Positions 51,799 to 51,927 of a DNA stretch of 64,000 bases are shown here, piece by piece. The DNA comes from Escherichia coli. Its GTDB lineage: Bacteria > Pseudomonadota > Gammaproteobacteria > Enterobacterales > Enterobacteriaceae. The translations under genes and the position numbers were made by a program. The notes under the pieces are model-generated. The model was not told the origin of the DNA. It was given only the letters and a program-made list of their open reading frames with translations, and did no database searches. The stretch lies in assembly GCF_016026235.1 (NCBI RefSeq), contig NZ_CP065613.1; one strand, given 5' to 3'. Numbering within the stretch: position 1 is the stretch's first letter; each line of letters begins with the position of its first letter.

Positions 51799-51927
51799 CT
51801 ATTTATCGGAAGGTTTATCTTGCTGCTGTTTGTTGTTGACCATATCGCACAACATAGAGAGCAGCATTAACCGTACTTTAAAGGGAGAATGACTAAACAC
51901 GCGCATACACCTCTTGAACTCATTCAT
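51799..51927 (-). CDS. mntS: Small protein MntS, 42 aa (MNEFKRCMRVFSHSPFKVRLMLLSMLCDMVNNKQQQDKPSDK)
   Basis: Not in the ORF track (below its size cutoff); found by manual translation of the minus strand; SD aggaggtc upstream; divergent from mntR as in K-12. Confidence 0.85.
   Translation of the reverse strand: MNEFKRCMRVFSHSPFKVRLMLLSMLCDMVNNKQQQDKPSDK

Follow-up and report, generated by a model that had tools for sequence, protein, structure and literature searches.

The 64-kb stretch of E. coli DNA analysed here (the window) carries, on its minus strand between opgE and mntR, a short open reading frame (ORF) that encodes the small protein MntS. The K-12 gene order opgE-mntS/rybA<>mntR-ybiR is retained in the window, with mntR, encoding the manganese-sensing regulator, divergent from mntS, and the 585-bp opgE-mntR intergenic region can be aligned to that of K-12 with six mismatches and no gap (99% mean column identity). 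The features of the locus and its surroundings are as follows.

51799..51927, minus strand: mntS coding sequence, P34Q allele, with an ATG start, 42 codons and a TAG stop
51826..51828, minus strand: codon 34 of mntS, which reads CAG (Gln) in the window but CCG (Pro) in K-12, with the single-nucleotide difference at 51827 (from the K-12 alignment and translation)
51932..51937, minus strand: Shine-Dalgarno (SD) sequence AGGAGG, 4 nt before the mntS ATG
51986..52003, unstranded: putative proximal operator of MntR type, ATATAGC-N4-GCTATAT, with the projected transcription start (51994) inside it
52007..52020, unstranded: putative distal MntR-type box, imperfect, TTAGCAATAGCTAT when read on the minus strand, one mismatch to the core
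52000..52028, minus strand: candidate sigma-70 promoter, TTAACG (52028..52023), 17 nt, TAATAT (52005..52000), read from the sequence and the K-12 rybA 5′ end
51655..51994, minus strand: rybA/mntS transcript, projected from the K-12 annotation (K-12 852725..853064, offset 801070)
51779..51800, minus strand: hairpin 1, AGCGGCGT-CGCGGT-ACGCCGCT, 8 bp with a 6-nt loop
51758..51773, minus strand: hairpin 2, CCTGCA-TTTA-TGCAGG (as RNA, CCUGCA-UUUA-UGCAGG), read from the sequence
52113..52580, plus strand: mntR (equivalog NF008273, 269 bits, cutoff 153; RefSeq and K-12 annotation)
49944..51527, minus strand: opgE, from the K-12 gene order
47338..47841, minus strand: dps, with the second exact palindrome core upstream

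The ORF at 51799..51927 translates on the minus strand as MNEFKRCMRVFSHSPFKVRLMLLSMLCDMVNNKQQQDKPSDK (42 aa), and its identity as MntS is supported by every test applied. The NCBIfam equivalog model NF033226 (small_MntS) matches residues 1-40 of the 42 (92.8 bits, E = 6.6e-27; cutoff 36). MntS of K-12 MG1655 (b4705, formerly an ORF in RybA) has the same length and genomic position, and 41 of its 42 residues agree with the window protein, the exception being Pro34, which is Gln in the window. The preliminary description of this DNA had placed mntS at these positions as a gene missing from the ORF track and had called its product exactly MntS. The 42-codon ORF is indeed there, and the alignment to MntS that it put forward as a check gives the 41-residue agreement with b4705, but the word “exactly” fails at residue 34. 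No ORF of at least 60 aa was found to overlap 51600..52100, so an ORF track with that floor would miss mntS. mntS is an established gene, with earlier studies of both its regulation and its function; in E. coli FDAARGOS_943 (NZ_CP065615.1), RefSeq annotates mntS (WP_038339621.1) on exactly the same bases, within a 521-bp stretch that is 100% identical to the window. Of 5426 complete E. coli genomes, 5421 contain this 521-bp region. Comparison of the peptide with a local Pfam-A copy gave no match; MntS homologues bear a precomputed PF26599 (MntS) assignment, and the copy used was probably older than that entry.

Homologues of the peptide are numerous: a search of proteins gave 136 with E <= 0.001, nearly all of them 41-44 residues long, and those with names are called MntS and come from about a dozen enterobacterial genera. 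Eight orthologous loci were compared (Salmonella, Citrobacter, Klebsiella, Enterobacter, Kosakonia, Kluyvera, Intestinirhabdus, and one metagenomic contig), and in all eight ybiR-mntR is divergent from mntS, which is followed by an opgE-type sulfatase-family gene. An alignment of 22 MntS sequences, the window protein included, has M1, N2, E3, K5, R6, C7, V10, F11, H13, S14, P15, F16, V18, R19, L20, C27, and K33 as invariant positions. The traits of the family are all present in the window protein, namely a length of about 41-44 residues and an N-terminal MNEFKRC, an HSPF motif, and Cys27, each of the latter three being invariant in the alignment. Across nine taxa, variable columns in the first 36 codons are distributed 18/7/29 by codon position, pairwise dN/dS has a median of 0.11 and a maximum of 0.28 (36 pairs), and all other frames contain stops in most of the compared taxa. 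The mntS reading frame is under purifying selection, and an earlier analysis is reported to agree (PMC4361602).

Conservation is highest upstream of the coding sequence. The best-conserved block of the intergenic alignment spans 52040..51975 (ACAAAAAATTAACGTTTTAGCAATAGCTATATAATATAGCCTGTGCTATATCTGTATG on the minus strand), with a column identity of 0.948 as compared with 0.862 for the ORF, and it holds both MntR-type boxes and the candidate promoter. At the proximal site, the plus strand of 51986..52003 reads ATATAGCACAGGCTATAT, a palindrome with perfect 7-nt arms and a 4-nt spacer, and contains the exact core ATAGC-N4-GCTAT at 51988..52001. Two exact copies of this core occur in the window, where 0.02 would be expected. 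The proximal 14-nt core is kept in all eight other loci, being identical in seven and altered by one spacer change in Kluyvera, and the distal box, whose center lies 19 bp upstream of that of the proximal box, has the same spacing in seven of the eight. Closer to the gene, AGGAG of the SD sequence is retained in nine of nine aligned loci. Both the SD sequence, AGGAGG at 51937..51932 and 4 nt from the ATG, and the MntR-type palindrome had been picked out in the preliminary description, and both stand: the palindrome is exact at 51986..52003 and shares its core with the regions upstream of mntH, mntP, and dps. Reading 51986..52003 as an operator of MntR type is thus supported by its sequence and its conservation. 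The 5′ UTR, SD sequence, promoter, and both boxes of the window are those of K-12.

The start of transcription was taken as the 5′ end of the K-12 rybA annotation, which corresponds to 51994 in the window and falls between the two arms of the proximal palindrome. The -35 and -10 hexamers assigned to mntS are candidates read by position, and a perfect TATAAT at 52007..52002 on the minus strand would be an alternative -10. If the listed hexamers and the start at 51994 are taken together, the distal box would lie within the promoter spacer and the proximal box over the edge of the -10 element and the start, a two-box geometry that would fit repression by occlusion. A consensus promoter scan did not report the mntS promoter; its sole minus-strand hit was 51678..51650, in a conserved block nearer opgE. 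That block is one of two conserved non-coding blocks between mntS and opgE (51640..51724, minus strand). One of them, TTTGCAATCCCCTTCGCAAAA, is an imperfect inverted repeat. The other contains the promoter-like element TTGACC-17-TATCTT (51678..51650), kept across genera and probably the opgE promoter, and the annotated 3′ end of K-12 rybA (window 51655) falls within its -10 region.

Other MntR targets offer a comparison for this arrangement. In K-12, mntH has the same exact ATAGC-N4-GCTAT core upstream as mntS of the window. The mntP gene of K-12 also has an exact core upstream at one site, and beside it lies a one-mismatch variant, TTAGC...GCTAT, as at mntS. However, the two mntP boxes are 40 bp apart and lie approximately 365-405 nt upstream of the start codon, whereas at mntS the boxes overlap the core promoter, with 19 bp between their centers; the placement at mntS would fit repression, while at mntP MntR activates according to the literature. 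The second exact core of the window is found at 47891..47904 (ATAGCACCGGCTAT), 49 nt upstream of the dps start codon, and the same 14-mer precedes dps in K-12. Its position would fit the repression of the dps promoter by MntR-Mn that is attributed to Yamamoto 2011 in PMC5553809.

K-12 annotates a 340-nt ncRNA, rybA (b4416), over the bases of mntS, and the gap-free projection indicates the same transcript in the window. Northern blots are reported to have detected several RNAs, 205 to ~400 nt long, that share their 5′ end (PMC4361602). Two hairpins lie at its 3′ side. Hairpin 1, as RNA AGCGGCGU-CGCGGU-ACGCCGCU, has a folding energy of -13.8 kcal/mol (z = -1.96), and its first two bases overlap the mntS stop codon. 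Its 20-nt core, GCGGCGTCGCGGTACGCCGC, shows no difference, even in the loop, among E. coli, Salmonella, Citrobacter, Klebsiella, Enterobacter, and Kosakonia, while the flanks of the core vary among genera. It is followed in the other genera by a T-rich tail such as TTCATTTTT and in the window by TTCACTCC. Hairpin 2 is confined to E. coli, and is not kept in the other genera. Four of the base differences from K-12 fall in and just after hairpin 2, with two loop-side bases of the hairpin differing and one base pair gained in the window; one further difference lies downstream. The preliminary description had mentioned downstream hairpins, and both are present (51800..51779 and 51773..51758), but an intrinsic-terminator scan passed neither under its canonical definition and found no terminator there. 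This fits the several RNA sizes of 205 to ~400 nt, and it also fits leaky termination in E. coli. A third candidate, ATCCC...GGGAT in the 5′ UTR, was rejected as too weak, since its consensus energy is -2.9 kcal/mol and only two of its pairs show compensatory changes.

The invariance of the hairpin 1 loop is, judging from the alignment, more constraint than a terminator stem would need. RybA has been described as a target of ProQ and RhsFI, with binding sites in the 3′ UTR (PMC7618764), and in combination with the invariant loop this makes a protein-binding role for hairpin 1 a reasonable proposal.

Taken together, the locus is read as mntS (rybA) on a chromosome of Escherichia/Shigella type, present as the rare P34Q allele, transcribed leftward under the control of MntR boxes and encoding an inhibitor of MntP, a reading to which we give a probability of about 96%. 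The promoter would lie between mntR and mntS. When manganese is low, apo-MntR would leave this promoter free, mntS would be expressed, and the 42-residue MntS would be translated from its strong SD site; the protein would then bind and inhibit the MntP exporter, so that intracellular manganese would be raised or retained, as described for the K-12 allele. When manganese is high, Mn-loaded MntR on both boxes, which overlap the promoter, should occlude RNA polymerase and switch mntS off. MntR repression and MntP inhibition rest on published work with the K-12 allele and would extend to the window, the present analysis contributing the identity of the gene, its anatomy, conservation, and coding constraint.

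That literature covers most steps of the proposed sequence. A PmntS-egfp fusion responded to manganese only with MntR present (PMC9806134), repression of mntS by MntR:Mn is reported (PMC4361602), and Mn-loaded MntR is described in the literature as a repressor of mntS, mntH, and dps and an activator of mntP. Tagged MntS protein was reportedly detected, and frameshifts at F11 or F16 are stated to abolish the MntS phenotype, which was Hfq-independent (PMC4361602). Binding of MntS to MntP is reported from two-hybrid and co-purification experiments, the phenotype, manganese sensitivity, needs MntP, and MntS is said to self-associate with manganese present; the signal peptide of an ancestral SitA is its apparent origin (bioRxiv 10.1101/2023.06.02.543501, later Mol Microbiol 121:152). 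According to Wright et al., a subset of SitA signal peptides, as in Rahnella and Sodalis, are long and homologous to MntS, have the PF motif in common with it, and can replace MntS and bind MntP. Unlike these signal peptides, MntS has neither the AXA cleavage motif nor a mature domain and is less hydrophobic (Wright et al.). In the present MntS alignment H13-S14-P15-F16 is invariant; the homology to SitA itself is taken from the literature.

Stress-induced peptides of fewer than 50 residues that bind larger membrane transporters include MgtS, AcrZ, KdpF, and SgrT. These are unrelated to MntS in sequence, and MntS differs from them in inhibiting an exporter and in being directly controlled by a metalloregulator encoded beside it. 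The mntS locus is a compact, textbook-quality case of a metal-sensing repressor located beside its small-protein target. What is new here is confined to two items, a conserved proline that is replaced in a rare natural variant and a 3′ hairpin of unusual invariance.

The variant proline is residue 34, which is Pro in 20 of the 22 aligned MntS sequences, from about a dozen enterobacterial genera; the other two are the window protein, with Gln, and that of Intestinirhabdus, with Thr. The window protein accordingly lacks the conserved Pro of a C-terminal KPQQ/KPEQ motif; this motif is a trait of the present alignment and not a published definer of the family, so membership in MntS is unaffected. 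A 41-mer centered on the nucleotide difference, in which a mismatch at the central base leaves megablast without a seed, was found with the Q34 allele in 3 of 5426 complete E. coli genomes, as compared with 4373 of 5426 for the K-12 version. In a collection of 15 billion proteins, the exact Q34 protein occurs on 63 contigs and the P34 protein on at least 1000. The P34Q substitution is real and rare, and the position it affects is conserved although the rest of the C-terminal tail varies. The mutagenesis described in the accessible parts of PMC4361602 and bioRxiv 10.1101/2023.06.02.543501 addressed N-terminal and central residues and frameshifts.

One consequence of the substitution might be a weakened or inactive MntS, with relaxed or changed manganese homeostasis in the carrier lineage. 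The conservation of Pro across genera and the scarcity of the Q34 allele among complete genomes speak for this, as do two EIEC/Shigella-like hallmarks of the window, an ipaH gene at a prophage end and an inserted IS4 element; genomes of this type often show gene decay. However, the ORF, SD sequence, promoter, and both operators are intact, the last three being identical to K-12, and the occurrence of the exact protein on 63 contigs indicates that the allele persists. The C-terminal tail also differs in length and sequence among genera, with Thr at this residue in Intestinirhabdus, and two of the three complete carriers are bovine isolates that are not among the five genomes in which the ipaH/prophage query is at least 80% covered. 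A weakened or inactive Q34 protein is judged unlikely. A further proposal is that P34Q may alter the binding of MntS to MntP or its self-association, giving a natural allele with altered manganese retention in the carrier lineage, here in an ipaH-bearing, EIEC/Shigella-like background, and that, separately, hairpin 1 may be a sequence-specific site for a protein such as ProQ beyond any terminator role; the two parts jointly have only a slim chance of being right.

A second alternative is that the transcript acts mainly as a non-coding regulatory RNA, RybA, with the ORF incidental. K-12 carries the 340-nt ncRNA annotation over mntS, repression of aroF and aroL under peroxide stress has been described as RybA-dependent (Gerstle 2012, as cited in later papers), ProQ and RhsFI are reported to target RybA, with sites in the 3′ UTR (PMC7618764), and hairpin 1 is invariant in six genera down to its loop. 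However, the codon-position pattern and the dN/dS of 0.11 reflect selection on the protein, and the manganese phenotype is reported to be lost upon frameshift, with tagged protein detected (PMC4361602). Nor does the RNA as a whole look structured, as the predicted fold of the 340-nt transcript is no more stable than that of shuffled sequence (z = -0.28) and Rfam returned no family over the locus, either at E <= 1 in 50500..53500 or at the gathering threshold in a scan of the whole window. Conserved structure in RybA was limited to the 3′ hairpin, and no curated RNA family matched. A function mainly as a regulatory RNA is very improbable, and a role of the RNA would at most be additional to that of the protein, not an alternative to it. 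The remaining possibility, a chance short ORF in an intergenic region beside an accidental palindrome, draws on the abundance of short ORFs (52 of at least 20 aa overlap 50500..53500) and is refuted to the point of negligible probability by the profile match at E = 6.6e-27, the 136 homologues with conserved synteny, the clear coding signature including dN/dS, and the presence of two palindrome cores for 0.02 expected, both at MntR-regulated promoters. The MntS-coding reading is retained.

Other parts of the window also differ from K-12 or hold small features. Two more K-12 small genes are present with identical DNA, yliM (21 aa, 49262..49327, plus strand), upstream of ompX, and ybiE (19 aa, 34996..35055, plus strand). 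With mntS (42 aa), these are three K-12-annotated genes of the region, showing that a 60-aa ORF floor misses small genes that are real and functional. At 17752..19014, approximately 1.26 kb stand in place of approximately 0.9 kb of K-12 (the ybhM region, 820633..821521); of the two ORFs there, of 114 and 125 aa, neither had an NCBIfam match. Rfam, at gathering threshold, identified a Moco riboswitch at 14031..14175 (plus strand, 103.6 bits), upstream of moaA by K-12 position, naRNA4/CssrE at 35081..35151 (minus strand, 78.4 bits), and three ES036/CssrF copies of about 43 nt at 12725, 29803, and 56566 (minus strand).

The left end of the window, 1..4446, has no K-12 match until the ybhC-ybhB gap (K-12 807328), which we take to be the lambda attachment region, and it carries prophage tail-fiber genes. 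The ORF at 2206..3969 (minus strand) encodes a 587-aa IpaH-family type III effector E3 ubiquitin ligase (NF046045, 563 bits, cutoff 550). At least 80% of this ipaH/prophage end is covered in only 5 of 5426 complete E. coli genomes, and its content points to an EIEC/Shigella-like source. Between fiu and mcbA, an insertion of approximately 1.4 kb relative to K-12 (38731..40155) encodes an IS4-family transposase (ORF 38797..40143, NF033592, 304 bits), and the K-12 matches flanking it overlap by 13 bp, as expected of a target-site duplication.
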